Of a stretch of 64,000 nt of DNA, positions 34,955-58,343 are shown in pieces (the first letter of the stretch is position 1; every line of letters begins with the position of its first letter). This DNA is from a virus. The stretch lies in IMG/VR virus record IMGVR_UViG_3300037130_000236; one strand, 5' to 3'. The notes under the pieces were generated by a model. The model saw nothing but the letters and a program-made list of their open reading frames with translations. It was not told the origin of the DNA and ran no database searches. The translations under genes and the position numbers were made by a program.

Positions 34955-34982
34955 AATCAACGTGATATGGTATAATAAGGCG

Positions 34983-40297: not shown

Positions 40298-41119
40298 GTG
40301 ACGATTATCGCCGGCAGTCCGATGGCACCAACGGCAAGTTCCAATGCCGTTCAGCAGCCCCCAGCTCCGGGATCGGCCACTCCGGCTGCGGCGAATGCCC
40401 AGAACACTCCCGGCGGTATCGTCATCCCCTCGCTTGCTCCCAGCTACGAGTGGATCTATCCCAACTCGACGGATGGCAAGTATTTCACTGCCACACAGGC
40501 CCAGATGTACATCGGCAACCTGTTCATCGACGAGTTGGTGAACCTGCAGTTTGCCTATCAGGGCAACCGAATTCCCATGTTTGGGTATTGTTCACGAAGC
40601 GCGGATGCGTTTGGGACCGGCAGGCTTTTGGTACAAGGGCAGATCGCGATTAACTTCGTGACTGAAGGCTACCTGTACACGGTCCTCAAAGAGTTCTCGA
40701 AGATCTACACCCAGCCGGTTCAGGCATCAGCAACAGGACAGGCGGGCGCGCAGATCGCTTCTCTGGTGCAGCAGAGTCAGCAGATCACTAACGCCATGCA
40801 AGGCGCCTTGTCGCCGTCTGCCACCGCAAGCTACCAGGCGCAGTTGAACATCATCAGCCAGCAGATCCAGTCTCTGGCCGCCCAGGGCGGCCCGGACGCG
40901 ATCAACGCCGCCAAGCAATCCGCCACTGTTCAGAGCGACACTCCAAACGCGATTGTGCTGAACATCCCGTTCGACATTCACTGCGAACTGACAGGCGCGG
41001 GCCGCACGGTGGAGAGGATTCTCCGCAACTGTCTGCTGATCTCGAACGAGCAGGTTTACGACCAGTCCGGACAGACCCTGCTGGACTGTTATGGCTTCGT
41101 TGCCCGTTCCGCAAACTAA
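40298..41119 (+). CDS. Second tail-tube-fold paralogue
   Basis: YF...QAQMYIG, LQF.YQ.N.IPMFGY.S...D....G..LVQG.+.INF. Confidence 0.65.
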   Translation: MTIIAGSPMAPTASSNAVQQPPAPGSATPAAANAQNTPGGIVIPSLAPSYEWIYPNSTDGKYFTATQAQMYIGNLFIDELVNLQFAYQGNRIPMFGYCSRSADAFGTGRLLVQGQIAINFVTEGYLYTVLKEFSKIYTQPVQASATGQAGAQIASLVQQSQQITNAMQGALSPSATASYQAQLNIISQQIQSLAAQGGPDAINAAKQSATVQSDTPNAIVLNIPFDIHCELTGAGRTVERILRNCLLISNEQVYDQSGQTLLDCYGFVARSAN

Positions 41120-41145: not shown

Positions 41146-41574
41146 ATGTCCGATCAGATCAGAGAACAACCCCAAATCACCCCTTTCGAGTTCCTCCATA
41201 CATTCCCGGAGGCTCCGAGCCTGGAGCAGATCGAACAATGGAAGCAGCAGGCGCCAGGCGCGCGCCTCCGTATCTGGCACTCGACGGATGGGAAGCGCGT
41301 TTATGTGCTGCGGGCCATCGGTGGCCAGGAACTGGGGCAACTGCAGGCGAGCCTGCCCCCAAACATCCCGCCAGAGAAGTTGCAGGCCGAGGTCCAGATC
41401 CTCATGGCGATCCGCTGTTGCGTGTGGACCAGCTCGACCATCGATCACAAGCTGTCCGATCTCGCACTGAAGGGAGCAGGCGCCGGCCTTCCCCAGACGC
41501 TGCAAGAGATCATCTATCAGCTGTCTGACTACATGGACCCGATGGACATCAACCGCTTCAGCGCCGATCTGTAA
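41146..41574 (+). CDS. Tail assembly chaperone (putative)
   Basis: Position after the tube genes; IE.WK.. and R.CVW..., AG.P.TL...I..LS patterns. Confidence 0.6.
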   Translation: MSDQIREQPQITPFEFLHTFPEAPSLEQIEQWKQQAPGARLRIWHSTDGKRVYVLRAIGGQELGQLQASLPPNIPPEKLQAEVQILMAIRCCVWTSSTIDHKLSDLALKGAGAGLPQTLQEIIYQLSDYMDPMDINRFSADL

Positions 41575-41582
41575 GGAGCGCC

Positions 41583-42158
41583 ATGCAGGTATTCTTTGCC
41601 CGTTGGCCAAGTGGCCGTAAAGTGAAGTGGCGTTCACTCACCTGGGCAGAGTTCAAGAAGTTTGATCGACAACTCGATTATGACTGCCCGGCTTCCGTCT
41701 ACTGCGACGTATACCGGGCAGTTGTGCTTGATGGCCCTCCTCTGGATGGCGATCCTGTTTACCAGGCGCCGGCCGGACTCGTCGAATGGATTGCACGAGC
41801 ATTGCTGGACTCGAATCCGTTCAACGGAGAATACAAGGACGTCAAGCGCGCGCTCGAAATGAAGCGCATCGAACTGAAGTCAAGCTGGTTGAACTCCGCC
41901 AAGTCGATCATCGCCGGGATCTTCCGTTACACCTTCGAGGAGATCGAGCAGTGGGATGCGGAGATGTTCTTCGAGCGTCTCGCCTCCGCCGAGTTCGTCT
42001 CTGGGCGCAAGCTCGAGCCGGGAGACCCGGATAAGCTGGATGCCCAGCATCCTGGGAAGAAGCCTGGTCACCCTGAAGGCCCTCCGAAGCCTGCCAAGCG
42101 CGAGCTGAGTCCGGCACAACAGAAGGTTGTCAATCGCGTCGTCAACTCCCGTAAGTAA
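41583..42158 (+). CDS. Second tail assembly chaperone (putative)
   Basis: Own RBS aaggag; +.WR.LTW.EF, F.YT.EEIE.W. Confidence 0.55.
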   Translation: MQVFFARWPSGRKVKWRSLTWAEFKKFDRQLDYDCPASVYCDVYRAVVLDGPPLDGDPVYQAPAGLVEWIARALLDSNPFNGEYKDVKRALEMKRIELKSSWLNSAKSIIAGIFRYTFEEIEQWDAEMFFERLASAEFVSGRKLEPGDPDKLDAQHPGKKPGHPEGPPKPAKRELSPAQQKVVNRVVNSRK

Positions 42159-42167
42159 GGGGATGCT

Positions 42168-45100
42168 GTGCCCTTGGATTCCTCCCAACCCGTGATCGAA
42201 ACCACAGCCGGGCGTCCTCGTTTCGCTTCCGACAAATCCTTTCAACTGGAAAGTGAAGAGGCCTACAATCCCTGGGTCCGAGCGATCGGAGTCGGGGTTG
42301 TGGGCACGGCTTTGTATGCCACGCATCGGACGATGCTGGCGACGGTGCCGGAGTATGCCCCGACGCTTCAGAACTGGGCGCAGAAGTTCGAGAATCAGAC
42401 TCCCTTCCACATTGGCCGGACCTTCGCGTTTACCGAACGGCTCTCTTCCTACACAACTCCCGAAGAGTTGAAGTTCACACGGTCGATGCTGACCAACCTG
42501 GACGGGTCGCTCAACGCCGTCGGCGAGACATTCCAACGTCAGTTCAAAGATGCAGGCGTCGATTTCGATGTCCTCCAGCACGTCACCGAAGACAACCCCT
42601 TGCTGTTCAAGGGCCGTCGGCGCGCTGGCTCTGCCTACATGAAACTGGTGGGCCGGGACAGGATCGACTTCGAGACCCGCTTCACTCCATCGGAAGGCCG
42701 TCTCGCTGGCACTGCTTCCCGTCTTGGCCAGAACCTGCACCAGCCGCCCCTCCATTGGTCCACGAATCCCAACTTCCGCGAGCGGATCTGGGAGAACTTC
42801 CAGACCTACAGATCTTCGCAGCGCATCACCAACGCGTCTCCCTGGAGAGAGGCCGCCAAGGATGCTTCTGATCCGAAGTTCCGGCCGTTCCACAGCCGGG
42901 CTCATGTCGAAGGCAATCTGAGTGAGGAGGCTGCGCAGACAGCTCGCAACGTCTGGTCGCGCTTTCAGGTTGAATCTCTCGAAGCAGTAGAGCGCCCTCA
43001 ACGGCTCTTTGCCGAAGCAGGTTTCGGTCTCAAGGCAGGCACCTGGAACAAGACCTTCCATCTTCCTTTCGCCGGCGAAGGTGGCATCGTCAACAAGATG
43101 ATCACCAGGCGTGTGCTGCCGATCGCGCTGGCTGCGACCGCCGCAGGCTGGCTGGATTACAAGCTTGGACATCCCAGCGACAAGGTCATCGATCTCGGCC
43201 TCAAGGCCAACGTCCTCCGGGCGGATCTGACAGACATGCTTCCCGGTGGCCGCAAGGTCACCGAATTCTACGAGAATACTGTCCCCGGGCCACAGTACGG
43301 TCCGCTGGCGCTCCCCGCGGCCGGTGCTTTTTCCGGCGGCCTGCTGCACTACTCGCGCGTCGTGCGCGGCCAGTTCGCCACCGAAGATCTCCGCAAAGCA
43401 GGCTCACGCCTTCTGCCGGATGTGAAGGCCCTGCGGACATGGGCCGGCACCAGCGGTAAGAAGCTGGCATCCATCGAAGGCCTGGCTCAGATCTGGAGAG
43501 GTCTGGGCACACCCGGCAGAGGAGCGGCAATTGGTCTGGTGGCAGCGTTGCCCTTCCTGCCTGGAATGCTTGGTTCTCGCAAGACTGGCAACGAGTTGCG
43601 CGATGTCTATTCCGGACTGGACGAGGTTCCAATCCGAAGTGGACGCTGGTGGGAGTTGGGATCAACTCCCTTTGAAGGCGCGCGCATCAAGGCATGGCGG
43701 CCTCACTGGAGCGTCCTGCACAAGAGCCGCGCGGAAGACATCTCGCTGTTCGGATCGGAAGAAGAGAAGTGGAAGCACAACCCGATACTGCATCCACTGC
43801 GCTGGCTGAAGGACCCCTACTACCTCGAAAAACTGCACTACGAGGACCGCCCGTACCCCGTGGCGTCGCCGGCGTTTACCAATTTGCCGCTCATCGGCCC
43901 GTTGCTTGGCGCCACGATCGGCAAGCTGGTCAAGCCGACGATCAGAATGCACGAAGAGGATTGGGATGGCAAGGAGTACACCCTCTACTCGACACGCATC
44001 GAACCCAAAGGCCCGGAGGCTCTCCCGCCGCCACTGCCGAAGGACGAATTCTCGATCGGCAACGCACTCAAGAAGGAAGCGACGATCTTTGCCGAGTACA
44101 CCGGACTCTACGGCTTCATTGCCAAGAGTGGCTATCAGGGACTGTTCCCCAACACCAACAGTCTGGGCAAGGAGGTCGACTATCAAGGATCTCGTCAGAT
44201 CGACAACTTCTCTCGTCGTTACTACGAGAAGGAGCTGGGCGCCGGCATTGGTCCGTCCCTCTCAGGCACAGAGCACTTCGGCTATACAGAACCCTTCCGC
44301 CGCTTTGTCCAGCGGGAGAGCTTCTCTCCCCAGGCCAACGAGATCCCCAATACAGCCGCCAGTTGGCTGCCAGGAGATGACTACTACACCAACTTCCATG
44401 TCGGCGATCCCTTCATCAAGGTCGACCAGGGATTTGCCCGTCTGCCCGGCGCCGGCTACGAAGCCATCCATCCCGAGCTGAAGGGAGTCGATCCAGAAGA
44501 CTACCCCGACATACACAAGATGGCCATCCTGGCCGATGTGGCTCCATACTCACGTGAGTACCACAACGTCAGGCAGCGTGTAGCCCAGCAAGCCAAGGGC
44601 AATACCGAACTGGAGATCGAATACGAAAAGATCATGAACCGGGTCAAACAGACCCGTGAATCGATCATCCGGATGAACGACAGGCACTTCACCGCCCCTG
44701 TCGATGAGATCTCCGGCACCGTGGACGACGTTTCTCCCGGCGGAGTCATCCTCAAGGAGTTTCCCGGCCGGCGCTTCCAGTTCTCCTCCGTGGGCATGAG
44801 TGCGGCAGACCTGTCGGCGCGGATCCTCGGCGAGAACAACAACATGACCCGTAGCGAGGTGGCCCTCGAAGTGGATCGCCGCCGCGGCGCCATGCAGCAA
44901 TATCTGGCCGATCATTTGGCCGAAGGCACCTCGATCCGAGCTGTTGTTCCGAAAGGATCTGCGAGCAATGCAGAGCAGATCCGGGCTGTCATCCTGGCCA
45001 ATGGAGAGAACGTCAATCGGGAGCTGATCGACCAGGGGTTTGGTCAGTATCGTGAAGATCTCGGCGGGGCCGAAGCTCGTTCCATGCACGGCAAACTGGG

Positions 45101-46181
45101 GCGCGCCATCGGCGGCGTGGCTGAGGGTCTGGCCTTCCAGGGAGATTCCAGCGCATTGAATCCAATGCGGTATGTGCCATCGCCGGCCCACACCAAGTTC
45201 TGGCAGGAACGCACCCCGCTGGCCCAGTACATCAACAACGAGGTTGCAGGCACCAGGATGCGGCGTTGGGAGCGCCCGATCCACGACTTCCTCATGCCCT
45301 ATGCCCGCGGTCTGGTCGAGCGCGTGACCGGCCAAACTGTGCTGCCTGGCGACGTTCAGAAACGCCGGGACCTCAACACTCTGGCCGACGTAATGACCTA
45401 CCTGCGCGATCTGGATGGACGTGCGTCAGGTTCCTATACTAATAAGGGGCAGAGGACATCGATTGGCGCCAACCTGTTTGCTGCGCCGACCTTTGTCGCT
45501 TCCACCCTTCCCGCTCGTGAATCCCACTACTTCCGTGAGTTTCTTGCCGAGACTGATCCGAGCAAGAGAACCCAGATCCTGAAGGTTGCATCCCCAGAGA
45601 TGCAACGCGCTTTGTCTGCCCAATGGGCAGTGCAGAAGTCCCGCATTGCCGAGGTGGAAGGCAAGGATCACGAGGAGATCGGCGAGGGCGGCCGGCTGTA
45701 CGACGAAGCCGACGTTGAAGAGTTCGAGAAGGCTGACACCGGCCTCGACTACGGCAACTGGCTGCGTTCGAAAGAGATCGCGGACTTCTTCTCCCGGACT
45801 GGATTCGCTCTCCCTGAGCACGGCTTTGAAGCGTTTGAAGAGGCTTTGGATTACCAGGATGTTGAGCTGAAGATAATCCAGCAGGAGGGGTATGACGCAC
45901 ACGACTTCAACATCTTCGACGACAGGGCTTCCCTCCTGTGGCGGAAGCCTTACATCGATGGAGCTGTTCGTGAATTGACCAGCGGCGATGATCGTTCTCC
46001 CGACCAGCTTCGGCGTGCGGTGGAACAGATCATGCAGGCAGCCAATGACAAGAAGGCGGACGTTAGAACCTCCGTTCATGCAGGACATGTGAACCACACG
46101 AATGTTCGCGTGAGCGCCGATATAGATCAGACAGAAGACTTGCTGAGAGATATTCGCCGGAATCCAGAGGATTACCAGTGA
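42168..46181 (+). CDS. 1337-aa virion protein in the tape-measure position, with a degenerate thermonuclease (SNase) OB-fold
   Basis: Follows the chaperones; hydrophobic GxxxG segments; G.V..V.....I....RFQF..V...L..G..+....+RAV+...GENVNRELI.QG.G near 44700-45050. Confidence 0.65.
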   Translation: MPLDSSQPVIETTAGRPRFASDKSFQLESEEAYNPWVRAIGVGVVGTALYATHRTMLATVPEYAPTLQNWAQKFENQTPFHIGRTFAFTERLSSYTTPEELKFTRSMLTNLDGSLNAVGETFQRQFKDAGVDFDVLQHVTEDNPLLFKGRRRAGSAYMKLVGRDRIDFETRFTPSEGRLAGTASRLGQNLHQPPLHWSTNPNFRERIWENFQTYRSSQRITNASPWREAAKDASDPKFRPFHSRAHVEGNLSEEAAQTARNVWSRFQVESLEAVERPQRLFAEAGFGLKAGTWNKTFHLPFAGEGGIVNKMITRRVLPIALAATAAGWLDYKLGHPSDKVIDLGLKANVLRADLTDMLPGGRKVTEFYENTVPGPQYGPLALPAAGAFSGGLLHYSRVVRGQFATEDLRKAGSRLLPDVKALRTWAGTSGKKLASIEGLAQIWRGLGTPGRGAAIGLVAALPFLPGMLGSRKTGNELRDVYSGLDEVPIRSGRWWELGSTPFEGARIKAWRPHWSVLHKSRAEDISLFGSEEEKWKHNPILHPLRWLKDPYYLEKLHYEDRPYPVASPAFTNLPLIGPLLGATIGKLVKPTIRMHEEDWDGKEYTLYSTRIEPKGPEALPPPLPKDEFSIGNALKKEATIFAEYTGLYGFIAKSGYQGLFPNTNSLGKEVDYQGSRQIDNFSRRYYEKELGAGIGPSLSGTEHFGYTEPFRRFVQRESFSPQANEIPNTAASWLPGDDYYTNFHVGDPFIKVDQGFARLPGAGYEAIHPELKGVDPEDYPDIHKMAILADVAPYSREYHNVRQRVAQQAKGNTELEIEYEKIMNRVKQTRESIIRMNDRHFTAPVDEISGTVDDVSPGGVILKEFPGRRFQFSSVGMSAADLSARILGENNNMTRSEVALEVDRRRGAMQQYLADHLAEGTSIRAVVPKGSASNAEQIRAVILANGENVNRELIDQGFGQYREDLGGAEARSMHGKLGRAIGGVAEGLAFQGDSSALNPMRYVPSPAHTKFWQERTPLAQYINNEVAGTRMRRWERPIHDFLMPYARGLVERVTGQTVLPGDVQKRRDLNTLADVMTYLRDLDGRASGSYTNKGQRTSIGANLFAAPTFVASTLPARESHYFREFLAETDPSKRTQILKVASPEMQRALSAQWAVQKSRIAEVEGKDHEEIGEGGRLYDEADVEEFEKADTGLDYGNWLRSKEIADFFSRTGFALPEHGFEAFEEALDYQDVELKIIQQEGYDAHDFNIFDDRASLLWRKPYIDGAVRELTSGDDRSPDQLRRAVEQIMQAANDKKADVRTSVHAGHVNHTNVRVSADIDQTEDLLRDIRRNPEDYQ

Positions 46182-46215
46182 TGCAAGTAAACCGTTCCTA
46201 TGTGGTCGAATGAGG

Positions 46216-46227
46216 CTTTGGTAGATC
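46216..46227 (+). promoter_or_regulatory. Motif B copy (CTTTGGTAGATC) upstream of the RNAP-like gene
   Basis: Matches consensus; intergenic. Confidence 0.6.
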
Positions 46228-46358
46228 CCTGCCAACAGGGAGACTCGTAACAGCCTCATCGGCCCCTGCCGGGCGGATCAAAACCTGGACTTCCACCCAA
46301 GCACACTCGTCCTCGTGCTCCTCGCCTTGATCGGAAGCATCCGCCCAACCCCCTTCCT

Positions 46359-49300
46359 GTGACCCTTATGGACCCTCGTGACTTCTTCAAGAACCTGACC
46401 GGCGTTTACGGCTGGGCTGCAGAACGGCCTGGTCTGATGTTCGGCGCCGGCGCGGCCGCATTGGCTGCGCCCCTGTTCATGAAGAACGACGAACGGGGCT
46501 ACTTCAAGACATCCACCATGACGACGCCGGCGATTGTCGCCGCGGCCATGGTGGCGCCCCGCCTTATCCCTACGGCGGTCAGCGAAGGCAAGCGGCTTAT
46601 CGATGTCGTCAAGCAGGTTCCCACGGACTACGGGTTCCGCGATGGAGTTTACCAGGCCGCCACCGGAGCAGTGAACATCGCCGCGCTGCGCAGCGCCTAT
46701 GAAGAAGGCCGCATCTCGATCAATGAATACCTCGCCGGACAGAGTCGCTTCTATTCCGGCCTTCCCATTGAGGAGATCACCAGCAACCAGGTCGAGCGTG
46801 AGTTCTCCGCCTTGACCTCACATTTCAATCGCCTCTACGAAGACCCGACCAAGCATCGCCTCCTGGAGAACGCGCTCTTTCACGCCCAACTGAAGCAGTC
46901 GGGCGCTGCCGACAAGCTGGGCTGGCAGGGCCTGACGGCCGTGGCGCCAACGATGACGGCGAACGAAATGAGCGACATCATCGACGCCAACTCCAAGGAC
47001 ATCGATTGGATCAGGGAGATGAACTTCCGGCTCCGTGAGGCATCCGGAGCCAAGGTTGCCGGCGAAGGTGCTGTCGTTCCCCAGCTCAAAGATCTGACGT
47101 CCGCCAATGCCGAGTTCATGACATCTGAAAGCTATGCCGGTCGTGGGCGCGCTTTGCTTGAAGAGCAACATGCTGCCCTGGCTCAAGAGATCGATGCCCT
47201 GCTGGGAGACAAGGCCGCAGTCAAGCAGTACGGCTACCGTGCCGAGAACATCGAGGTCATCACTCTGCCGGCCGGACGGAACCGACCGATCAACGAGATC
47301 GTTGGACTGCGTATCGACGGCGACCTGACCATCCCTGTCATCGATGGCAACGGTGGCATCAGACTGGGAAGCTCCTTCGAGAACTCAGGCGTCTCCCGCT
47401 TCTTCATGCAGCACGGCGGCGATGTCAGCGCCGATGTTTACGGCGTGCGCGGCCTCCGCTATGGGAAAGACTTCGTGCGCGGCGAGCTGAGCCGGGCTCA
47501 GTTCGTTGTCGGCCGTGATCCTCTCAACGGCAACCCTTTCCAGGCCGAAGATGCCGGTGTCGCCCAGGCAACCCGCCGCCAGCAGCAGTTCTACAGCAAC
47601 CAAGGTGTCTTTGCCGATATGCCTGGGTCTTTCCCCGTGGACGGCGAGGACCGCGGTGTTTGGAGTCGGATGCGCCCGGAGCGCAAGGTTGCAGAGATCA
47701 CCCACCAGGTTGATTCCGGCGGCAAGATACGCACCACGGGCGGCACGAAGATCGACACCCTGGAACGGGAGGAAACCCGGCTCATCGAGCCCATGGGTGT
47801 TCACAACCGTGAGAAGGAAAGCCTGCGCATCAAGTCGATGAACAAGTCGATTTGGGCGGAAGTGGCCGAAGGCCATGCCGGTTTCTCCGCGACGGATTAC
47901 ACCGACCTTCCGGAGTTTGGCGTTCGTTCCCTCCAGATCACTCCCAGCCAACGCGCGCTGTTCGGCGACCTGCCTGAGTGGGAGCAGGTTGCAGGCGCTG
48001 GTTTCGATTCCAGGCTGGCACTCGAAGATTCAGCGCGGGCCCTTTCGCTCGATATGGCCCTCAGCAAGATCGGCGCGAAGCAGCGGGCGGTCGGCTATAT
48101 CGCCAAGGACGCCGGCGTCAACGAGATGATTGCGACAGACATGTGGGATAAGCTCCTGCCTTTCCTGTCCAACCGGAAGAACTACGAAGCAATGCGCAAT
48201 GTCGGCTACATCGGCGAGGGCGCGCGCATCATGAAGAAGAACGTGGGCGCCGAGGCTGTGCGCCATGTGAACTACGTCGTTCACGAGAACATGCTGTCCG
48301 AGGACCTCCTCAAGGGAGGGACGTTTGGGCGCGATCAGGTTCTCGGAATGAAGTACGGCACCTCCATGTTTGCCCAGGGCGACAGCAACCGCATCATCAA
48401 CCACTCGGTCAACGAGGCGGACGGAACGATCCTCCTCCAGGTTGAAGAGCGTCTGGTCGTCCAGGGGATGAAGACCCACAACCTGGGCAAGCAGACCGTT
48501 AGTCGCGCGCTCGAAGACGTCGAGATGGAGCGGGTGATCCGCGGCTTCAACAACTACTTCAGGGTCTCAGGACAGGGCGGCGCTGTGGCCGATGAAGTCG
48601 ACAGCGTGGTTCTGGAACAGTTCAACAGCGCCAAGGCGAACAATCCGCTGCAGGTTCTCAACGACTCCCTGGGCGATACGTTCCGCCGGCTTGACGGTAT
48701 CTACGGCGCTGGCAACACGCCTGCCTTTCTGACCGAAGCAAAGTTCTCCGGCCGCAGCCATTTGGATCGCCTGGCCGAGCTGGGCTATTCCTACGAGAAT
48801 GGTCGCCTGATCACGCACACCGGCAATCTGCGCAACCTTCAAGGGTCGGCCGCCGATTACACCCAGGCCGCCGATTACATCCGCGACCTGATGGACGAGG
48901 TCGGGGCGCGCATCAAGAGCAAGCAGATCGCTGGCGATCGGTTCATGGAAAGCTATATCGACTGGTCGTTTAAGCATGAGGACGGAACCTACCTCGAATA
49001 CCTGATGCAGCGGGCGCTGCCTGAGTCCATGAGCGTGTCGGATCACATGGCACTCAACCACGCTTCCCGTGTCGGTATCACCCGCGATGCTCTCCAGCAG
49101 ATGTCTCTGGCCGGGGAACATGAAACGGCGCGCGAGATCCTGAGCCGACTCGAAACGGATGGCTCTACAGGCATGACCTGGGATTTCATGCAACACACCG
49201 ATCCCAGTGTGCGCGACTTCTCGAAGCCGTTTGGGGACGCCAGCATCTCGATCGATGAAGCAGTGGGCGACAGCCTGATCGACAGGCTGGGCACTGCCGA

Positions 49301-51398
49301 AGGCCGCGTCACGAAAGCGACCGGGCCTGACGGCAAAGTCGGGATCAGACCGACGATCTTCGACCCAGCTCACGACCTGGCGCAGAGGAACTACTCAATC
49401 AAAGCGAGTGTCGCCGGCAAGGACTACTTCATTCCGGTCCTTGGACGCGAGGCATACGGCGGCAAGGCCAATGCTCACGACCTGATGGGCTACTCGGCGA
49501 ATAAGTGGGAGAACGAGCTGCGCAACGTGTTGCAGACCGCCAACGATGTGAACGAGGGCTTCGGCACCAAGATTCCCTTCGAGGACGTACTCGCCAACTA
49601 TGTTCAGAAGGTCCGGGAATCCTACGGCGTCGGCAAGGAAGGTGTTTGGAGAGCTCCGACGATTGATCCCTTGGGATTCGAGGGCCGGGCGACTGCGCGT
49701 GCGTCAACACTGCGCTACGCCGACGGCTCTGTCAATCCCTTCGAGATTGGTGTCGGCGAAGAGTATCTGGACCTGATGTCCAAGGAGCATGCCGAGATCC
49801 TGCGCGGCGGCGGCCGCGTGCAGGCCGTATCTGTCCGGCATCCCATCAATGCCGTGGTCATGGCCGATGTGAGATACGATCCGAATCTCAACGGCTCATG
49901 GCAGGTCGGCGCCGATCCGGTGATGCAGCGCATGATGCGCATGGACGCCGACGGCGACCGGCTGTCGTTCCACATGGCAAACACCCAGGCCGTGAAGTGG
50001 GCAGAGGACGTTGCCGATCCGGCTGCTCTCCAAGGTGAGCGCGCGGCAGAGTATGCCCGCTGGCAAAGGTTCTCAGAACAGATCAACAATCCGGAAAGCC
50101 TGCAAGGCAGGCTCGGAGCCTTCCGCCGCGTCTTTGAAGGCGACGAATTGAACCCTCGTGAATACGTGAAGGGTTCGATGACGGACGTGTTCTCCAACGT
50201 CAGGAAGTTCGCGGGAAGGGATCTCCGCAAAGCGATTCAGGCCCGTACCGCCGCGGCCGACGTGGGCATGCTGTCGAATACCTTCGACCAGCTCGAAACC
50301 TCGATGGCTCACAACGATCTTTTCCGCGATCCGTTCGAGAAGCTGATCACCCATGAGTTCTCTTACGACATCGTGCGCGAAGCATCGATCGCCGCGGCAA
50401 AGCTGAAGGGCGGCGGAGCGTACCAGGATCTGACCACCCTGATGGCATGGAACAACTCTCTTCGCTCGGCGCTCAATGACCGTAGCGAAAAGGGCATGAA
50501 CCGGTTCATCACCGCCATGACGGAGGGCGCACAGAACTTCGGCAAAGAGATCGCGGTCAACGATGCCCAGAAGGCATTCTTCAAGATTGCCGACGAGACC
50601 GCAGAGATCAATCCGTACCTTGAGTTCGCGCAGCAACGGCGCGACCTGTTGGAGAAGCTGTGGCGAGGCCACGACTCCACGGTCAGCGAGATCCAGCAGA
50701 TCATGACCGTGACTGGCGAGAATGCTGCGAAGTACGCGAGGCGCGACATCGTCACCCTGTTCAACAATCAGGTGCCTGCGGTACAGGCATTTGCCCACCG
50801 GGGCGCCAGTGACTACTCGGCTGCCACTCTGGGTGCGGAAAACGCCCGTACGGCCGCCGGGAAGTTCGCTCAGAAGACAGGCCGGGCCGCCGAGGGCGTC
50901 TTCAACCAGGCAGCTCGCTCTGTCGAAGAGGTCGTGCAGGCGGCGCGCGGGACCGGCGCAATGAAGGCACTCGGCATTGGAGCGGCCGTCGCAGTTGGAT
51001 CTGGCATCCTGTTCGGCTCCTTGCGCAGTCCTCGAAAGGGACAGGCATTGGCTCCCTCCGGGAACCGTTTCCGCCCAGAAGAGAAGATCGGCGTCGATGG
51101 TCATGTTCCAGGAGAACCTGAGACTGGGGTTATGGCGCCTGCCAACCCTCCTCGTAGAATCAGGCCCGCCCAGGGCGGTGTACGAACCGCAGTCGTCGCG
51201 CCGATCGGTCGCACGACGGAGCTTGAAGTCCACATGCGGGCGGATGATCGCGGAAGGGCTGCAGAAGCCTCGAAGATAGCGACCCGTCTGGCAGCTCCAG
51301 CAGGCAACTCCCACGTCTCGATCACCTACCGAGACACTACGCGCCTTGACAGCTTGCGGACCAAAGAACGGATCCGCGAGGCAATGGACGAGAGATAA
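46359..51398 (+). CDS. Single-chain two-barrel (DPBB) DNA-dependent RNA polymerase, putative virion RNAP / tape-associated
   Basis: Beta'-like order EGRATAR (about aa 1108), PFEIGVGEEY, VQAVSVRHP (R1160), ADPVMQRMMRMDADGDRLSFH (D1196-D1200, nt 49944-49958); weaker beta-like YIGEG (617-621), GMKTHNLGK (703-711), EVDSVVL. Confidence 0.8.
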   Translation: MTLMDPRDFFKNLTGVYGWAAERPGLMFGAGAAALAAPLFMKNDERGYFKTSTMTTPAIVAAAMVAPRLIPTAVSEGKRLIDVVKQVPTDYGFRDGVYQAATGAVNIAALRSAYEEGRISINEYLAGQSRFYSGLPIEEITSNQVEREFSALTSHFNRLYEDPTKHRLLENALFHAQLKQSGAADKLGWQGLTAVAPTMTANEMSDIIDANSKDIDWIREMNFRLREASGAKVAGEGAVVPQLKDLTSANAEFMTSESYAGRGRALLEEQHAALAQEIDALLGDKAAVKQYGYRAENIEVITLPAGRNRPINEIVGLRIDGDLTIPVIDGNGGIRLGSSFENSGVSRFFMQHGGDVSADVYGVRGLRYGKDFVRGELSRAQFVVGRDPLNGNPFQAEDAGVAQATRRQQQFYSNQGVFADMPGSFPVDGEDRGVWSRMRPERKVAEITHQVDSGGKIRTTGGTKIDTLEREETRLIEPMGVHNREKESLRIKSMNKSIWAEVAEGHAGFSATDYTDLPEFGVRSLQITPSQRALFGDLPEWEQVAGAGFDSRLALEDSARALSLDMALSKIGAKQRAVGYIAKDAGVNEMIATDMWDKLLPFLSNRKNYEAMRNVGYIGEGARIMKKNVGAEAVRHVNYVVHENMLSEDLLKGGTFGRDQVLGMKYGTSMFAQGDSNRIINHSVNEADGTILLQVEERLVVQGMKTHNLGKQTVSRALEDVEMERVIRGFNNYFRVSGQGGAVADEVDSVVLEQFNSAKANNPLQVLNDSLGDTFRRLDGIYGAGNTPAFLTEAKFSGRSHLDRLAELGYSYENGRLITHTGNLRNLQGSAADYTQAADYIRDLMDEVGARIKSKQIAGDRFMESYIDWSFKHEDGTYLEYLMQRALPESMSVSDHMALNHASRVGITRDALQQMSLAGEHETAREILSRLETDGSTGMTWDFMQHTDPSVRDFSKPFGDASISIDEAVGDSLIDRLGTAEGRVTKATGPDGKVGIRPTIFDPAHDLAQRNYSIKASVAGKDYFIPVLGREAYGGKANAHDLMGYSANKWENELRNVLQTANDVNEGFGTKIPFEDVLANYVQKVRESYGVGKEGVWRAPTIDPLGFEGRATARASTLRYADGSVNPFEIGVGEEYLDLMSKEHAEILRGGGRVQAVSVRHPINAVVMADVRYDPNLNGSWQVGADPVMQRMMRMDADGDRLSFHMANTQAVKWAEDVADPAALQGERAAEYARWQRFSEQINNPESLQGRLGAFRRVFEGDELNPREYVKGSMTDVFSNVRKFAGRDLRKAIQARTAAADVGMLSNTFDQLETSMAHNDLFRDPFEKLITHEFSYDIVREASIAAAKLKGGGAYQDLTTLMAWNNSLRSALNDRSEKGMNRFITAMTEGAQNFGKEIAVNDAQKAFFKIADETAEINPYLEFAQQRRDLLEKLWRGHDSTVSEIQQIMTVTGENAAKYARRDIVTLFNNQVPAVQAFAHRGASDYSAATLGAENARTAAGKFAQKTGRAAEGVFNQAARSVEEVVQAARGTGAMKALGIGAAVAVGSGILFGSLRSPRKGQALAPSGNRFRPEEKIGVDGHVPGEPETGVMAPANPPRRIRPAQGGVRTAVVAPIGRTTELEVHMRADDRGRAAEASKIATRLAAPAGNSHVSITYRDTTRLDSLRTKERIREAMDER

Positions 51399-51400
51399 CC

Positions 51401-54400
51401 ATGAGCGTCATCACCACCGAAAAGGATTACAGCACGAACAACCCACTCGATGCGGGCTACTTCCGCGTCGGGTTTGTCACCCTGCAGATCCCACCACAGG
51501 ACATTGTGACCTCGCGTGTTGTGAACAACGAGAAGATCACGCCTCTCCGCGGCATGAACGAGATGTTCCAGAAGACGGGGCAAGCTCGCTGGGATGTGAC
51601 CGTGAGTTGGACGGCACTGTTGAATGACGCCGATCAGGTCACCAGGTATCAGCAGTGGGAAGACCTTCGCAATATGGTCGCCATCTTCAAGGCTGCTCCT
51701 TTCGTGGAGGTGGAGTCTCCGCACCTGCGCCAGATGCTGGCTGCTCATGATCCGGAGTTCTCCACCAGACGCCTCTCGATGGGCCTCCGCCAGCTTCGCG
51801 TCGACAACCATCCAGATGTCATCGACGCACTCAAGGTCACCCTGACGATGACCTACTTCAACTGCCTGCCCTATACCCAGGACTTCGGATACCAAGGTGA
51901 TTCCGGACAGAGTGTAAGTGCTTACCAGTCACAGAAGTTCAAGAAGTACATTTCCCAGTGGCGCCAGATCAACATGGAGCGGGCATTCCGCTACCCAGGA
52001 GACCCGATCTGCCCCTTGTGGCTGGCCCAGAATCCTGGCGAACTGGCTCTCAAGTGGAGGACCTACCTTCCAATACAATCTGGGCAAGTACCGGACTACG
52101 CCGGCCAGCTCAACGCACCGGCGACCATCGGCGGAACGGTTGTTCCATCCACGGTGACGCCGAAGGCTCCGAAGGGGAAGGTTGCGCTTCCGCCTGCAAT
52201 CGCTCAGCTCATTCAGCAGATCGCACCGCAGTTTGGTCTTGACCCTGCAATAATGCAAGGAATCTGCTGGTACGAAAGCAAAGGCAATCCCAACGCCAAG
52301 AGTCCAAACTCGACTGCCACAGGTCTCTTTCAACTGCTCAATGGAACTGCAAAGGCCATGGGAGTCACAAACTCCTATGACCCGACCCAGAATACAACCG
52401 GGGCCTGCAAACTCATGTCCCAGCTGTATCGTCAGTTCGGATCGTACGAGCTTGCCATAGCTGCTTACAATGCAGGATCTGCTTACGTCAAGTGCTATCT
52501 GAACGGAACCAGTCAGACCTTGAAAAGTGGTGTAGTTATCAATCCAGGCAAGCAGATGACAGGCGGGATTCCTCCAGCAGGTGTTCCTGCAGGCGAGAAC
52601 GTGCCAAAGTACATCTCGACGGTCATGAGTATCGCTCAGTCCTCGTTTGGGTACAACGGCACCGCCACGTCCACAACCCCAACCGTAGCGCCCGGCCCTG
52701 CGCCGGCAACGAATGCAACGACACCGGCCAGCTCAGGGTCAAACCCGACAACTTCGACCAGTTCGAGCACCGAAGCTGCCTTTGAAGCACAGGTGAACAA
52801 CCTTGTGGCTCAAGGCTGGAGTGTCGATCACCGGGCCGATCCCGGTGGCGTCGGCGTTCTCTTCCTGTACAAGGAGAACGAACTTCGGGTTGCTCCTCAA
52901 GACTCCAATTCAGGAGGCGTGCAACCGGGCCTCTGGCCGGAAGGCATCTCGGTTCTCTTCGTCAACAACCTCGCGCAGATCCCGCTGGCTGGCTTCCAGT
53001 ATCCGACCTACCAGCACGTCGGGCCCTGCAGCTCTCTTGTGCAGGTGTCATTCGGTTCCCAGGGGACGCGCGACAATCCGAACACGGACGAGCCGATCCA
53101 CAACGGTCTGATGACCCTGACCTCGATGGCTCATATGCTGGAGCAGCAGTACCAGCGCCTGCGCACGCAATTCCGTTCGATCGCATCGGTTCACAGGATG
53201 CACGCGGTCTATGTCGAGAACCAGGTTCTGAATATGCTCGGTATCTTCGGGCTGATGCTCGATCAGGTGACCACCGAGACAGTGCCTGATTCCTCGGATA
53301 TGGCCATGGCCCAACTCACGGCCTGCCAGTACGAGAACAAGTTCGAAGAACTCACCTCCTACAAAGTCAACGCGATCGACGGCGTCTACATGACTGCCCT
53401 GCAACAGACGGTGTTGCAGGGAGACACGCTTGCCCAGGCGGCAACGGCGGCGTCGCCTGATGAGAGGGCACTGATGGGTGCGGCCTTCACCTATCGCCAG
53501 CACATGGCCAGCTCCGACGAGAACGACATGAGCGCCCGGCTTCTCAATGCAGCCGAAAACCCCTCTGACTCGTCGCCCTTCGGATTCATGAACGGAGCCC
53601 AGTCATTCTTTGTCAGCGAAACAGATGCGGATGCGCTGACGAACGAGTTTATGGAAAAGTCTTCCAGTTACCCGGTCGCCGCGGCGCGCGTGAAGCAGCT
53701 TCAGCAGTCGGGCAATACAACGCAGTGGACGATGGCCGATTACCTGATGTTCAAGTCCTGCGCTTATGACGCAGCGGGAACTGGCGCCATCACATCCCTC
53801 GTATCGAGCATCGATCAGGGTCTGGCGGCCGACACCGATCTGAGCCGGCAGAAGATGGTCAGCGATGTGTATTCGCGGCTCTTTCCCTACTTCGCGGAGA
53901 ACGATCCGAGCCTGCGCAACGCCCTGAACCAGATCATGCAGAGTCCAACGCTCGGCGCGAGCATCAAGAACTCCGTCTCTGCAAGCGACCCCGCCCTCTC
54001 GAATGCCGATCATGGGGCCTACCGCGACATGGGCCTGAACAGTCAGGTCCTCGATGGCGAAGACTTCAACCCCGGGATGTACTTCACCAGCGACAAGACG
54101 ACCTATCTGGCCAAGACGAGGACAGCCCTCGGGAACATCACGGCACAGATTGCCTCAGGTTCAAGTCAACTGAACAGCGACAGCAACGGATACCAGGTTC
54201 CTGCGGGAACGATTCCTCTGTCCACGACGACCTCGATTCCCGGCAACATGGACTCGATCATGAAGATGATCAATGTTCCTGGTTACAGCATGACCGAGGC
54301 ATTCCCGACCTTCAAGCTGTTCTTTATGGAGGACGCCAACAGTGGCATCTATTACGCATTCGACAACTTCTACAGCTACAGTGCGGTGATCGACATCGAG

Positions 54401-56947
54401 GTACAGCGGCCAACCAACAAGCCGGCGACCCTCCGCATGAAGCTGATGAATCTCACTCACCTGTTGAGCCACAAGCTCTATGATGCTTCGCTGGCCGGCA
54501 AGTGGGAGGCATCGCTCGACAGATTCGCCATCAGCACAGGCGGCACGGCTGCGGCCACAGGCTCGGATGTTCCCACCAAAGGATTCGTCGGACGGAACGG
54601 CATCGGTGGCGCGCCTTATCAGATCATGGGCAAGGACAACACCGAAGGCTACGCCGGTGGCGACATGTCCAACCGCAGGATTCCGCTTCAATACTTTCCT
54701 CTTCAGACGGGCAGTAAGATCCAGCTTCGTGTGGGGTTCTCCAACAATCCGGACAAGCTGACACCTGTCTTCTGTGGCGAGGTCACCGACATCGAGGGCA
54801 ACGAGATCCTGACTGTCACTGCCCAGAGCTACCTGCTTGAGCTTGCGTCCTTGAGCGGTGACAAGATGAACTCGAACTCATGGTTCCAGCTCGGATCGCT
54901 GCTTCAGAACACGGTCAACATCCTGATACCGGGATCGGGTGGCGGCATGTCCAAAGGGCCTGCCTACGGAGGCGTCACCATCTTCGGCGATGCCGGCGAT
55001 GTGGGCACGGTGATCTGGATGATGCTCAAGAACTCCGGAGCCAAGCACTTCGGTCACTGGCAGGTAAACAGTCCTGCCAATTCCTTGCTCAAGGGCTTTT
55101 CATGGAAGGAGCTGGCCGCCGCGCCGGCCGCCGGCGCCGCCAGTATTGCCGGTATGGACAACGTGGCCACCGCGCTTCAGAACGTCTACGACCGGTGCGA
55201 CGAGAACATCATGGTCGATACGGCCGTTCAGTATGACGGGACGTCGGTCAGCACGGACCCCAAGACCCACTCTCAATCCCGGAGCTGGATGGATCAGCGG
55301 AAGTATCCCTGGGCACCGGCATCCTACTATGTCGATTCCAAGACCACGTTGACGGTGTGGGAACTCATTCAGGACATCGCCAGACGGTATCCGGAATACC
55401 TGCTGCTCGAGAAGTGGTACGGTTTCCCTTACAGCTGTGACGCGACCCTGGTCTTTGGCCATCCCTTCGACTGGTACACAGCAAGGCCTCAGATGCTCGG
55501 CGACACGGAACGTGTGCGCGCGCTGAACCAGAACAACCAGGCATACACCCAGTGGTGGAATGCGAGCGGCAAGCAGATGTTCCTCGATGTCATGGGGGAC
55601 GGCACCATGCCTGTCACCGTGGCTCTCTACAAGAACCAGCTGCTCCAACAAGCAGGCGCGAGTCCGTCTGGGCTTGCCGCGGCACTTCAGTCGCTGTTGA
55701 CGATCGCGGTGGATGGTGTCGATACGGGTTCACAGACTGCCAACGATTGGCTGGCTCTTCCTGGCAAGCTCATCTACACCATCATCCCCGGAGAACGGGA
55801 GGCTCTTCGAAATCTCCAGAAGAAGATCAACGCAGTGCAGAGCGCGTACTACGCTTCCATCCTGGCCGGGGATCAGAAGTCGACCGACTTCCTGAAGCCG
55901 GTGCGTCGCTACCACTTCATCGACCATCAGTCCATCGTGCATAACGGGATGAGGGTCAACGACAAGATATACAACTGCATCCGCATCGGCGATCCGGAGA
56001 AGAACGGCAAGACCTATCCCATCCTGGCCAACGCCAGCATTCCTCCCAACCATGTGCGCGCGCTTGATGTCACAGACCAGATCAACGATCCCAAGCAGAA
56101 TGTGATCGACCAATCCCTTTCCGGCAACACCGGGCTGATCATGGCCTACGGCCAGAGCTTCCTGAGGGAAGAGTTGGGCAAGATGTACCGGGGCGAGATC
56201 GTGCTGCGCTGCATTCCCGAGATCGAACCGCAAGACGTTCTTCTCATCACCGATCCGTCCACAGGGATGGTCGGGCCGGTCGAGGTCGAGACCGTCACCC
56301 ACGTCATGAACCTGGAATCGGGATTCATCACCATCATCAAGCCGCGCGCAGTCATCACGATCAACGAAGCGGCATCGGCCAATTTCTTCCGAATGCTGAT
56401 GATGGCTATGGGAACCGTGATCCCGGAGATCCACCGTCTGAGCAATCTCTCCGTCTACTCATGGATGGAAGGAGCAGCCGTCGCCACAACCACGGCGGTC
56501 GGCGCCGGTGCGGTGGTGGCCGGATTGAGCTACGCAGGCGGCGCAGTGGCCACAGCAGCGGAAGGCACCGGTTTGGTGGCTATCGCTGCAGGTGCAACGA
56601 CTGAGTGGGCGGCTGCCGGCGCGGCCTTCCTTTGTGGCCCTCCGGGTTGGATCATCCTGGGCCTCTGCGCGATCGCGGCGGTCGGCGCCGCGGTCTGGTG
56701 GTTCACCGACAGCACAGCCAAGCTGAACCCCGTCGTGATCTGCCCTTGCACCAAGTTCGGGCGGCCGTGGGTCGGCGGCATCGAGGGCTGGTCCATCAAC
56801 GACCTGGTGGGCGTGGTGAACAATAAGGCGATGCAGTTTGTGGCCGACGAGATCTTCCCGCTGATCGATGCCTGGAAGGCCTTCCACGGCTACCCGACCC
56901 AGATTCCTCCCACTCCCCAGCCTTCCTGGGGTCTGTCTGCTCCATAA
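51401..56947 (+). CDS. Baseplate hub / tail-associated lysin with an SLT lytic transglycosylase domain
   Basis: A..FG+DP.+..GI...ESKGNPNAKS...ATGLFQL...TA...G....DP..N..G...+..L...FG..ELA+AAYNAG at about 52200-52490; hub-like C-terminus (G.I.L...PEI.P.D...I.D...GM.G..EVE.V.H). Confidence 0.85.
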   Translation: MSVITTEKDYSTNNPLDAGYFRVGFVTLQIPPQDIVTSRVVNNEKITPLRGMNEMFQKTGQARWDVTVSWTALLNDADQVTRYQQWEDLRNMVAIFKAAPFVEVESPHLRQMLAAHDPEFSTRRLSMGLRQLRVDNHPDVIDALKVTLTMTYFNCLPYTQDFGYQGDSGQSVSAYQSQKFKKYISQWRQINMERAFRYPGDPICPLWLAQNPGELALKWRTYLPIQSGQVPDYAGQLNAPATIGGTVVPSTVTPKAPKGKVALPPAIAQLIQQIAPQFGLDPAIMQGICWYESKGNPNAKSPNSTATGLFQLLNGTAKAMGVTNSYDPTQNTTGACKLMSQLYRQFGSYELAIAAYNAGSAYVKCYLNGTSQTLKSGVVINPGKQMTGGIPPAGVPAGENVPKYISTVMSIAQSSFGYNGTATSTTPTVAPGPAPATNATTPASSGSNPTTSTSSSTEAAFEAQVNNLVAQGWSVDHRADPGGVGVLFLYKENELRVAPQDSNSGGVQPGLWPEGISVLFVNNLAQIPLAGFQYPTYQHVGPCSSLVQVSFGSQGTRDNPNTDEPIHNGLMTLTSMAHMLEQQYQRLRTQFRSIASVHRMHAVYVENQVLNMLGIFGLMLDQVTTETVPDSSDMAMAQLTACQYENKFEELTSYKVNAIDGVYMTALQQTVLQGDTLAQAATAASPDERALMGAAFTYRQHMASSDENDMSARLLNAAENPSDSSPFGFMNGAQSFFVSETDADALTNEFMEKSSSYPVAAARVKQLQQSGNTTQWTMADYLMFKSCAYDAAGTGAITSLVSSIDQGLAADTDLSRQKMVSDVYSRLFPYFAENDPSLRNALNQIMQSPTLGASIKNSVSASDPALSNADHGAYRDMGLNSQVLDGEDFNPGMYFTSDKTTYLAKTRTALGNITAQIASGSSQLNSDSNGYQVPAGTIPLSTTTSIPGNMDSIMKMINVPGYSMTEAFPTFKLFFMEDANSGIYYAFDNFYSYSAVIDIEVQRPTNKPATLRMKLMNLTHLLSHKLYDASLAGKWEASLDRFAISTGGTAAATGSDVPTKGFVGRNGIGGAPYQIMGKDNTEGYAGGDMSNRRIPLQYFPLQTGSKIQLRVGFSNNPDKLTPVFCGEVTDIEGNEILTVTAQSYLLELASLSGDKMNSNSWFQLGSLLQNTVNILIPGSGGGMSKGPAYGGVTIFGDAGDVGTVIWMMLKNSGAKHFGHWQVNSPANSLLKGFSWKELAAAPAAGAASIAGMDNVATALQNVYDRCDENIMVDTAVQYDGTSVSTDPKTHSQSRSWMDQRKYPWAPASYYVDSKTTLTVWELIQDIARRYPEYLLLEKWYGFPYSCDATLVFGHPFDWYTARPQMLGDTERVRALNQNNQAYTQWWNASGKQMFLDVMGDGTMPVTVALYKNQLLQQAGASPSGLAAALQSLLTIAVDGVDTGSQTANDWLALPGKLIYTIIPGEREALRNLQKKINAVQSAYYASILAGDQKSTDFLKPVRRYHFIDHQSIVHNGMRVNDKIYNCIRIGDPEKNGKTYPILANASIPPNHVRALDVTDQINDPKQNVIDQSLSGNTGLIMAYGQSFLREELGKMYRGEIVLRCIPEIEPQDVLLITDPSTGMVGPVEVETVTHVMNLESGFITIIKPRAVITINEAASANFFRMLMMAMGTVIPEIHRLSNLSVYSWMEGAAVATTTAVGAGAVVAGLSYAGGAVATAAEGTGLVAIAAGATTEWAAAGAAFLCGPPGWIILGLCAIAAVGAAVWWFTDSTAKLNPVVICPCTKFGRPWVGGIEGWSINDLVGVVNNKAMQFVADEIFPLIDAWKAFHGYPTQIPPTPQPSWGLSAP

Positions 56948-57929: not shown

Positions 57930-57948
57930 ATAGCTGTGTTGCGCATCG

Positions 57949-58284
57949 TTGGAAGGTGCAGCCTTGAATGCCAGGAGACGCCAAGAAACTCTCCTAACTG
58001 TACTCGGTGCGGCCATGCTGCTTGTGGCGGCATTCGGCAAGTACCCCTACGGCTTTTACATGGTGCTTCGCCTAGTCGTCACGGTTGGCGCCATTTATTG
58101 GGCGTGGAGAGTGTATCAGGCAGGACTGCGGGGCTGGACTTGGGCATTTGTTGCCGTGGCGCTGCTCCTGAACCCGTTTTTGCCGATCCGGATGCAGCGC
58201 GCGCAGTGGCAACCAATCGATCTATGGCTTGGCATTCTCCTCCTCGGCTGGTCCACGTATTGGCTCGTCCGCAAACCTGAATAG
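57949..58284 (+). CDS. Small membrane protein, DUF6804-like
   Basis: PYGFY.+LR.+V...A...A.........W....+A+L.NP..PI...R..W..ID. Confidence 0.7.
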   Translation: MEGAALNARRRQETLLTVLGAAMLLVAAFGKYPYGFYMVLRLVVTVGAIYWAWRVYQAGLRGWTWAFVAVALLLNPFLPIRMQRAQWQPIDLWLGILLLGWSTYWLVRKPE

Positions 58285-58343
58285 TACCTGGAGGCTTCGC
58301 CTGCTTCTCACCATCGGTCAGATGATGTGCAGCGTAAATCGAA

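Follow-up and report, generated by a model that had tools for sequence, protein, structure and literature searches.

The window analysed here, a 64,000-nt stretch of viral DNA (IMG/VR record IMGVR_UViG_3300037130_000236) with a G+C content of 57–61%, covers a phage structural region. Within its tail genes, an open reading frame (ORF) at 46359–51398 (+) remains open over 1679 codons and encodes P0001 (1679 amino acids (aa) as listed), the middle one of three giant gene products of 1337, 1679 and 1848 aa. The predicted fold, the conserved residues and the genomic position of P0001 point to a single-chain, two-barrel RNA polymerase (RNAP) that is probably carried by the virion. Because residue 4 (ATG at 46368) is an invariant Met among the homologues and the closest of them, 97% identical to P0001, is 1676 aa long, the true start is probably ATG 46368, giving a protein of 1676 aa.

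An earlier note, written from the sequence alone, had proposed that residues ~1105–1205 of P0001 follow the catalytic double-psi β-barrel (DPBB) of the RNAP β′ subunit and that weaker β-like elements precede it in the same chain. All the peptides it quoted are located in this ORF at the residues named: YIGEGARIM (aa 617–625), GMKTHNLGKQTVS (aa 703–715), DEVDSVVL (aa 745–752), PLGFEGRATAR (aa 1104–1114), NPFEIGVGEEYL (aa 1126–1137), RVQAVSVRHPIN (aa 1153–1164) and VGADPVMQRMMRMDADGDRLSFH (aa 1183–1205). The DxDGD triad is intact and reads DADGD, with D1196, D1198 and D1200 (49944–49958, +) as the candidate Mg-binding residues. Ahead of it, with 33 residues between, stands R1160-H-P1162 (49836–49844, +), the counterpart of N-R-A-P in β′. 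The pair passes the filter [RK]xPx{20,100}DxDxD that Chaban et al. used for recognising RNAPs (PMC10770324 Suppl. Data 4).

P0001 belongs to a sizeable family. A word-indexed search returned 8 homologues with 97–28% identity, and an exhaustive profile search against 1.84 billion representatives returned 94 representative homologues, 63 of them below E 1e-30, nearly all of 1500–1800 residues and with matches covering the whole core; related records contain one family copy per genome. Conservation was counted in 58 aligned sequences of 17–62% identity. Each of the three Asp residues was kept in 58/58, with the residues between them differing freely (D/F/A/S and K/G/L/R), and the R-x-P element was kept as well (R1160 in 56/58, P1162 in 58/58). 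Two Lys residues of the upstream region, K705 (48471–48473) and K711 (48489–48491), were each kept in 55/58, the remaining three sequences having Arg in place of K711; they lie 6 residues apart rather than 8. K1093, R1098, R1296, G1303, S1306 and N1307 were kept in at least 54/58, and a further motif, Q/E1341..I1344..K1348 (50379–50408, +), with K1348 in 58/58, is common to KLEB27-3 gp034 and WH1 gp095 of Bacillus phages. The residues that had been put forward for a conservation check (DxDGD, R1160 and K705/K711) thus all proved strongly conserved, and invariant Asp residues separated by variable positions, together with an R-x-P and Lys pair kept at low overall identity, form the pattern of selection on an active site.

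A first model of aa 560–1320, built with 7 sequences, was of limited confidence (predicted local distance difference test score (pLDDT) 64), yet 50 of the 50 Foldseek matches listed were RNAP largest subunits. With the 58-sequence alignment, AlphaFold2 modelled aa 520–1460 (47916–50738, +) at a mean pLDDT of 91.9 and a predicted template-modelling (TM) score of 0.90, and all 50 Foldseek matches listed for this 940-residue model in the PDB were RNAP chains. The best was a β′-type piece of the AR9 non-virion RNAP (7s01_d, E 4.8e-4), accompanied by E. coli chains D/J among the β′ types and by T. thermophilus chain C among the β types. VIA-align, applied to the Foldseek top 1000, superposed the model on Pol IV (8xme_A, Z 11.5, 346 aligned residues, r.m.s.d. 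4.6), E. coli β′ (7mkq_D, Z 10.6, 360 aligned residues, r.m.s.d. 4.6) and QDE-1 (7y7s_A, Z 10.2, model residues 1–926). A second VIA-align run against 48,161 representatives gave Pol I A190 (Z 9.9), QDE-1 (Z 9.8), P74 gp62 (Z 9.7, spanning model residues 1–931), vaccinia Rpo147 (Z 9.6), RDR2 (Z 8.3), AR9 (Z 8.2) and P23-45 gp96 (Z 7.0, spanning 1–870), and placed the β-type Pol I A135 (Z 5.9) on model residues 1–382. In the ESM Atlas, the nearest shapes were clusters of phage single-chain RNAPs with PF00562 and PF00623 (TM 0.47/0.49), with 539 residues aligned over model residues 1–754; eight of the nine rows were clusters with RNAP Pfam members and the ninth was an unannotated cluster.

These matches divide the model in the order expected of a fused enzyme: residues 1–382 match β-type chains, residues 430–941 match β′ types, and single-chain RNAPs span 1–930. 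In the first half, a β-like double-psi barrel (aa ~622–718; 48222–48512, +; model strands 103–199), matched by T. thermophilus β and Pol I A135, carries K705 and K711 in a β-hairpin. In the second half, a six-strand double-psi barrel at aa 1104–1208 (49668–49982, +; model strands 587–687) superposes on the catalytic barrel of β′/Rpb1, and isolated DPBB domains (designed and Cdc48-type) superpose on model residues 585–689 with an r.m.s.d. of 2.2 Å and Z 7.9. The absence of such a barrel around DADGD had been named beforehand as one of the observations that would overturn the proposal; in the model, the Asp triad instead occupies the loop between a helix (aa 1187–1193) and the last barrel strand (aa 1201–1206), as in β′, and the local order of five strands, helix, DxDGD loop and strand is that of the β′ barrel. 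Beyond it lies a long helix of 29 residues (aa 1289–1317; 50223–50309, +; model residues 770–798) that bears the conserved R1296, G1303, S1306 and N1307 and may represent the bridge helix; further helices come after it, and the β′/Rpb1 structural alignments run on to model residue 941. The model, the fold matches and the conservation thus together support the proposed single chain with a Lys-bearing β-like barrel ahead of a DxDGD-bearing β′-like barrel.

Sequence comparison gave a different picture, and several results count against a relationship with RNAPs. The β′-like motifs are present, but by themselves they do not rise above chance: a protein with the length and Asp content of P0001 is expected to contain 0.41 DxDxD motifs, and when the 58-sequence profile was compared with E. 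coli β′ by hhalign, the result was not significant (E 0.22), although the best alignment fell exactly on the NADFDGD region. Against E. coli β, the same profile gave E 0.3, likewise not significant, and a profile from a 9-sequence alignment found among the PDB sequences only a spurious match at E 1.5. Pfam at E ≤ 0.1 assigned no family to P0001, nor did P0001 match PF05183, the YonO/QDE-1 family resembling RNA-dependent RNA polymerases, at that threshold; the PF00623 and PF00562 profiles failed to detect it, PHROGs and NCBIfam held no family for it, and tblastn with P0001 and with its core against 50,697 GenBank phage records gave no match even at E 10. At the structural level, the Foldseek E values are marginal (5e-4 to 6e-3), the global TM is low, and the VIA tool warns that Z values of 7–8 are common as background. 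A chance resemblance or a modelling artefact, unrelated to RNAPs, would be in keeping with the expected DxDxD count and the lack of sequence-level significance to known RNAPs, but it would have to explain why nothing but RNAPs matched the two halves, correctly ordered, in work that combined two independent models with three structure libraries and two aligners, and why the motifs are invariant across the P0001 family; we consider it barely credible. The global TM is low because only about one third of either chain superposes, and we accept the fold despite the moderate scores since the match lists are homogeneous, each half of the model resembles the expected subunit type in the expected order, and single-chain RNAPs align from one end of it to the other. 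The resemblance to RNAPs thus becomes significant through family conservation and predicted fold rather than through sequence alone, and the P0001 core is almost certainly, as modelled, a two-barrel RNAP fold.

The invariance of its active-site residues further suggests that P0001 is very probably a catalytically active polymerase. In the enzyme envisaged, the β-like barrel would contribute the two conserved Lys residues and the β′-like barrel the Asp triad that holds the catalytic Mg, with the long conserved helix after the second barrel taking the bridge-helix position. By analogy with the two-barrel enzymes of phages that have been characterised, we infer that the reaction would be DNA-dependent RNA synthesis. 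A two-barrel fold does not, however, fix template or product, and a virion-delivered polymerase of another chemistry, RNA-dependent (QDE-1/RDR-like), primer-making or of the PolD DNA polymerase type, could be imagined given that QDE-1 (Z 9.8–10.2) and plant RDR2 (8.3) are among the best full-length structural matches. DNA-dependent RNAPs are equally among the top matches, with QDE-1 (Z ~10) scoring no higher than multisubunit RNAPs; the nearest Atlas clusters are phage fused β/β′ RNAPs; every two-barrel enzyme characterised from a phage is a DNA-dependent RNAP (PMC10770324); and PolD was not among the matches listed, which is weak evidence. Another chemistry therefore appears improbable.

Turning to the genomic setting, the window contains the genes of a contractile-tailed phage, including those for the large terminase (816 aa; 15660–18110), the portal (19620–22385) and the major capsid protein (27015–28469). 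Its tail genes are colinear, gene by gene, with those of the Bacillus jumbo myophage WH1 in phmmer comparisons: the tail sheath (36445–38376, +; PHROG tail sheath E 1e-37) matches WH1 gp102 (E 7e-11), the tail tube (38495–39190, +) gp101 (E 9e-46), a tail tube paralogue (39278–40288, +) gp100 (E 1e-30), the gene at 40298–41119 (+) gp099 (E 2e-16), and two chaperonin homologues at 41146–41574 (+) and 41583–42158 (+) match gp098 (E 0.01, weak) and gp097 (E 8e-7), respectively. Both tube-like genes also match phrog_9206, labelled 'major head protein', a label that looks wrong given their position, and an HNH or homing endonuclease gene (34929–35597) lies within the structural module just ahead of the sheath region.

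The three giant genes follow. Giant gene 1 (P0002, 1337 aa; 42168–46181, +) is homologous by phmmer to 0305phi8-36 ORF145 (E 1.5e-60), WH1 gp096 (2e-61) and the first giant of Acinetobacter phage ME3 (1e-53); it matched no family in Pfam at E ≤ 0.1, PHROGs or NCBIfam, and ESM Atlas feature searches with P0002 and with P0001 aa 1–519 gave no usable lead. Giant gene 3 (P0003, 1848 aa; 51401–56947, +) carries an SLT lytic transglycosylase domain at aa 270–370 (PF01464, E 3.6e-20) and is homologous by phmmer to KLEB27-3 gp035, WH1 gp094, the 0305phi8-36 hub/endolysin ORF147 and the third ME3 giant. The order sheath, tube, tube paralogue, chaperonins, giants 1–3 (the third being the hub with a peptidoglycan hydrolase) and baseplate is common to 0305phi8-36, WH1, KLEB27-3 and ME3, the 0305phi8-36 series ORF143/144-145-146-147 equals the window order, and six metagenomic relatives keep the same gene order.

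The P0001 gene therefore sits, as a tape-measure gene would, between tail chaperonin homologues and the hub gene. The earlier note had placed it between the tail chaperones and the hub; it is indeed directly upstream of the hub giant, but on the chaperonin side giant gene 1 (42168–46181) intervenes. The accompanying claim that this is the tape-measure slot holds by synteny with 0305phi8-36 ORF145/ORF147, whose middle neighbour ORF146 is the presumed tape measure, assigned as a 'hypothetical tape measure protein' from tail length (PMC2147016). In the 0305phi8-36 record, ORF145, ORF146 and ORF147 were all detected in virions by mass spectrometry.

Across these phages, giants 1 and 3 remain recognisable (WH1, KLEB27-3, 0305phi8-36 and ME3), whereas the middle giants have no pairwise similarity in phmmer. 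By hhalign, KLEB27-3 gp034 and WH1 gp095 are nevertheless linked to the P0001 family (probability 94%, E 1.4e-7, 181 columns), the common block reading RxP...DxDGD...AR..IG..N...Q..IS.KK, and KLEB27-3 gp034 has a similar hydrophobic Gly/Ala-rich segment near its C-terminus. The ME3 middle giant (1607 aa) contains RxP...DHDQD at residue 1221; hhalign against its single sequence was not significant, whereas a two-part ME3 entry in BFVD, which has a matching size and may be this protein, ranked with the best structural matches of viral origin (E 6e-7). The top BFVD structural match was a protein of the Microcystis phage MaMV-DC (E 2e-8). The MaMV-DC record (KF356199) contains two giant ORFs with RxP...DxDxD: an ORF of 1697 aa (49227–54317, −), in which DADGD stands at residue 1372, and another of 3563 aa (66655–77343, −), with DFDGD at residue 2540; hhalign against the 1697-aa sequence alone was not significant. 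Profile searches of the ME3, MaMV-DC, KLEB27-3, WH1 and 0305phi8-36 records gave no matches, the screen being too insensitive at such distance. ORF146 of 0305phi8-36 contains no DxDxD and no profile match to the P0001 family, and that phage carries a YonO-like orf99 outside its tail module (PMC2147016). An RNAP core is thus not universal in the middle slot: many phages of the lineage, though not all, have a polymerase there. The slot-equivalent context also occurs in isolated phages, namely Acinetobacter ME3 and Bacillus KLEB27-3 and WH1.

Because ORF146 lacks any DxDxD, the structural role of the slot needs no catalysis, and P0001, whose slot is occupied in 0305phi8-36 by the presumed tape measure, could accordingly be pictured as a tape measure or ejection protein in which the two-barrel core has lost catalysis and persists as a scaffold for structural reasons. 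Such a scaffold would hardly explain an Asp triad kept in 58/58 around variable intervening residues or an RxP and both Lys retained at 17–30% overall identity, and we regard this possibility as very improbable.

Outside the core, P0001 has conserved termini. As had been noted from the sequence, both carry hydrophobic segments: Gly/Ala-rich stretches lie at aa 24–41 (46428–46481, +), a candidate membrane-inserting segment, and at aa 1531–1555 (50949–51023, +). Gly/Ala-rich hydrophobic segments of this kind are seen in tape measures and ejection proteins. The first is followed by the motif NDERGYFKT.TMTTP (aa 43–57; 46485–46529, +), kept family-wide with the consensus ND.RGY..TA..TTP, and the second by a conserved Pro-rich linker and C-terminal domain (aa 1567–1679; 51057–51398, +), a candidate hub or tail anchor with 46% identity even to a homologue that is only 28% identical overall.

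Three considerations suggest that P0001 is incorporated into the virion: its gene lies amid tail genes that have virion-protein homologues and runs in the same direction as they do; a polymerase produced only late would be of use chiefly when taken along to the next host; and the non-catalytic termini, with their hydrophobic segments, are among the most conserved parts of the protein. On this synteny, we judge it moderately likely that P0001 is present in the virion and ejected, and its storage in the tail lumen as, or together with, the tape measure can be put forward only tentatively. Taking these observations together, we think it probable that P0001 is a virion-carried, ejected single-chain two-barrel polymerase, most likely a DNA-dependent RNAP, that transcribes the first genes. 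The enzyme core would be held between the conserved hydrophobic termini, with the conserved C-terminal domain at the end; the gene would be transcribed with the tail genes, and the protein, made late and built into the virion via its conserved termini, would leave through the tail together with the DNA or before it. Perhaps held at the membrane by the hydrophobic segments, as proposed for P23-45 gp96, it would then transcribe the first genes of a ~200-kb genome independently of the host RNAP.

Delivery by the tail meets difficulties of its own. A folded 940-residue globular core would not fit the lumen of the tail tube, so that the core would need to pass through it in unfolded form or be kept at another site. 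Nor does P0001 have the extended helical part that characterises tape measures; rather than a mainly long α-helical or extended protein, aa 520–1460 form a compact α/β enzyme in the model. In ME3, KLEB27-3 and WH1, the annotation of the slot-equivalent giants goes no further than structural or hypothetical, those of KLEB27-3 and WH1 bearing the label '(virion) structural protein'. Finally, no early promoter class was found among the conserved DNA motifs, the sole conspicuous one, CCTATACTAGA, preceding tail and other + strand genes and not an obvious early region.

In the window, the motif TTCCTATACTAGA occurs in 7 copies at ≤2 mismatches against 0.21 expected, all on the + strand (8633, 13632, 22223, 32929, 35622, 45431 and 62084) and most of them 8–25 nt upstream of + strand genes. 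The same motif is the most over-represented 11–12-mer of a 178-kb relative, where all copies share a strand and fall within a single half of the genome, and CCTATACTAG recurs at the corresponding site behind the hub giant even in relatives whose P0001 identity is only 26–28%. TTCCTATACTAGA/CCTATACTAG is a candidate phage-specific promoter.

Such a promoter would suit an active two-barrel RNAP that is encoded in the tail operon without entering the virion and serves middle or late genes, for example those behind CCTATACTAGA. The motif stands upstream of + strand structural and other genes of the 178-kb relative and is retained at its place in those distant relatives, as expected for a phage-specific polymerase or factor, and each genome has a single RNAP-like gene. 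An enzyme produced solely along with the late genes, however, could not initiate its own expression; a soluble enzyme would have no use for the conserved hydrophobic termini and the C-terminal domain; even in very distant phages the gene keeps its place between two genes for virion proteins; and the slot-equivalent proteins are labelled virion or structural. We consider a non-virion enzyme of this kind unlikely.

Other polymerases were sought in four related records (96–214 kb). PF00623 was absent from them, as was PF00940 (T7-type RNAP), the latter a weak result since the PF00940 controls gave no match either. An 818-aa ORF with RxP...DHDLD in the 178-kb relative, tried as a second polymerase, proved to be the large terminase, equivalent to window 15660–18110 and homologous to ME3 9143–11431, which shows the pattern as well. 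A large terminase would therefore pass a naive RNAP motif filter, which calls for caution in motif-only screens.

Further features of the locus vary among the relatives. The junction of giants 1 and 2 (46182–46358 in the window) is variable: two relatives carry there a gene for a 357–360-aa ClpB-like AAA+ ATPase (L002 8796–9869; L004 219–1301), the 178-kb relative has ~670 extra bases, and the 177-nt junction of the window contains a long hairpin (46202–46265, −40 kcal/mol, z −2.9). An unfoldase gene beside giant virion-protein genes is suggestive. An insertion of ~5 kb with reduced G+C (52–55%; 57021–61990) separates the hub giant from the conserved baseplate genes, which start again at 62102; the relatives examined lack it, and it encodes a 559-aa WG-repeat protein (59539–61218, −; PF14903, E 4e-70). 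Related IMG/VR contigs are 178 and 214 kb long, the 214-kb one being an estimated 99% complete, which indicates a phage lineage of jumbo size; three related contigs are classed 'provirus' by IMG/VR, a hint of lysogeny. Distant P0001 homologues (26–29% identity; L050 and L051) lie on contigs binned to peat metagenome-assembled genomes of Terracidiphilus sp. (Acidobacteriota), a possible lead to the host rather than proof of it.

Virion-borne two-barrel RNAPs are known in crAss-like podoviruses, in phiKZ-type jumbo phages (as multisubunit enzymes) and in the P23-45 siphovirus lineage. Closest in concept to P0001 is P23-45 gp96 (8h2m/8h2n), likewise a single-chain two-barrel RNAP in the tape-measure position of a tail module. 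It is a tape-measure-fused virion RNAP that, in the published model, is ejected and transcribes pre-early genes (PMC10770324). The structural matches of P0001 to gp96 (Z 7.0) and to P74-26 gp62 (8f5m, corresponding to the non-virion paralogue gp64; Z 9.7) cover both barrels. P0001 is nonetheless not of gp96 architecture: gp96, which is clamp-less, belongs to a siphovirus, and the first 1100 of its 5002 residues form the RNAP, with a long tape behind them, whereas P0001 comes from a phage with a contractile tail and a jumbo-size genome, has a central core with only ~520 N-terminal and ~220 C-terminal residues outside it and no long tape, and is flanked by two further giants. Unlike in P23-45, no non-virion paralogue was found in P0001-bearing genomes, and P0001 has no detectable sequence similarity to gp96.

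Other systems share parts of this arrangement. The crAss-like phi14:2 gp66 is a giant virion-packaged single-chain two-barrel RNAP with DxDxD (bioRxiv 10.1101/2020.03.07.982082); like P0001, it is encoded beside other giant ejected proteins and is unrecognisable by standard domain searches, but it belongs to a podovirus, is thought to be capsid or muzzle cargo and has no sequence similarity to P0001. Its structure (6VR4) was not among the matches listed, crAss-like proteins appearing in BFVD only at E 3e-3 or weaker. YonO (SPbeta), QDE-1 and 0305phi8-36 orf99 likewise place a β-like barrel before a β′-like barrel in one chain, and QDE-1 aligns over the whole model, but they are soluble non-virion enzymes of ~800–1400 residues. 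The phiKZ/AR9-type and cellular RNAPs supply the best Foldseek match (the β′ piece of AR9) and the bacterial β′ and β matches to the two halves; the phiKZ/AR9-type enzymes differ in consisting of 4–5 polypeptides, in virion and non-virion sets, whereas P0001 is one chain. Coliphage N4 gp50, a giant, particle-carried and injected early polymerase, offers a functional analogy only, its T7-like right-hand fold being unrelated.

The searchable literature contained no description of the P0001 family and no report of an RNAP in ME3, KLEB27-3 or WH1, and in a survey of 224 jumbo phages RNAPs were reported solely from the phiKZ group and from two phages with YonO (PMC7824862). The family may coincide with an RNAP family among the 23 catalogued in PMC10770324, for example 'Cyano_RUMTOR_01356' or 'CAC1139'. 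In sum, the feature is real, its reading is supported for fold and active site, and its role in the virion and tail is plausible. Going further, we speculate that a widespread and so far unrecognised lineage of jumbo phages with contractile tails has replaced or supplemented its tape measure with a membrane-anchored two-barrel RNAP that would be the first protein through the tail, lodge at the inner membrane by its terminal hydrophobic segments, transcribe the first genes, help to draw in the ~200-kb genome and serve as the sole phage RNAP. This lineage would unite soil and peat metagenomic phages, possibly infecting Acidobacteriota, with ME3, KLEB27-3 and WH1, phages currently listed without a polymerase of their own; the full scenario is at present a rather unlikely one.

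If confirmed, P0001 would represent a fourth setting for virion two-barrel RNAPs, a single chain in the tail module of contractile-tailed phages of jumbo size. About 94 sequence clusters carry a protein of this type, unseen by current annotation libraries, and the reading would change for isolates that can be grown, namely Acinetobacter baumannii phage ME3, KLEB27-3, WH1 and perhaps the Microcystis Ma-LMM01/MaMV-DC group. Confirmation would also make testable the passage of a large enzyme through a contractile tail, the tape-measure slot as a general route of enzyme delivery and a start of phage transcription that is independent of the host.

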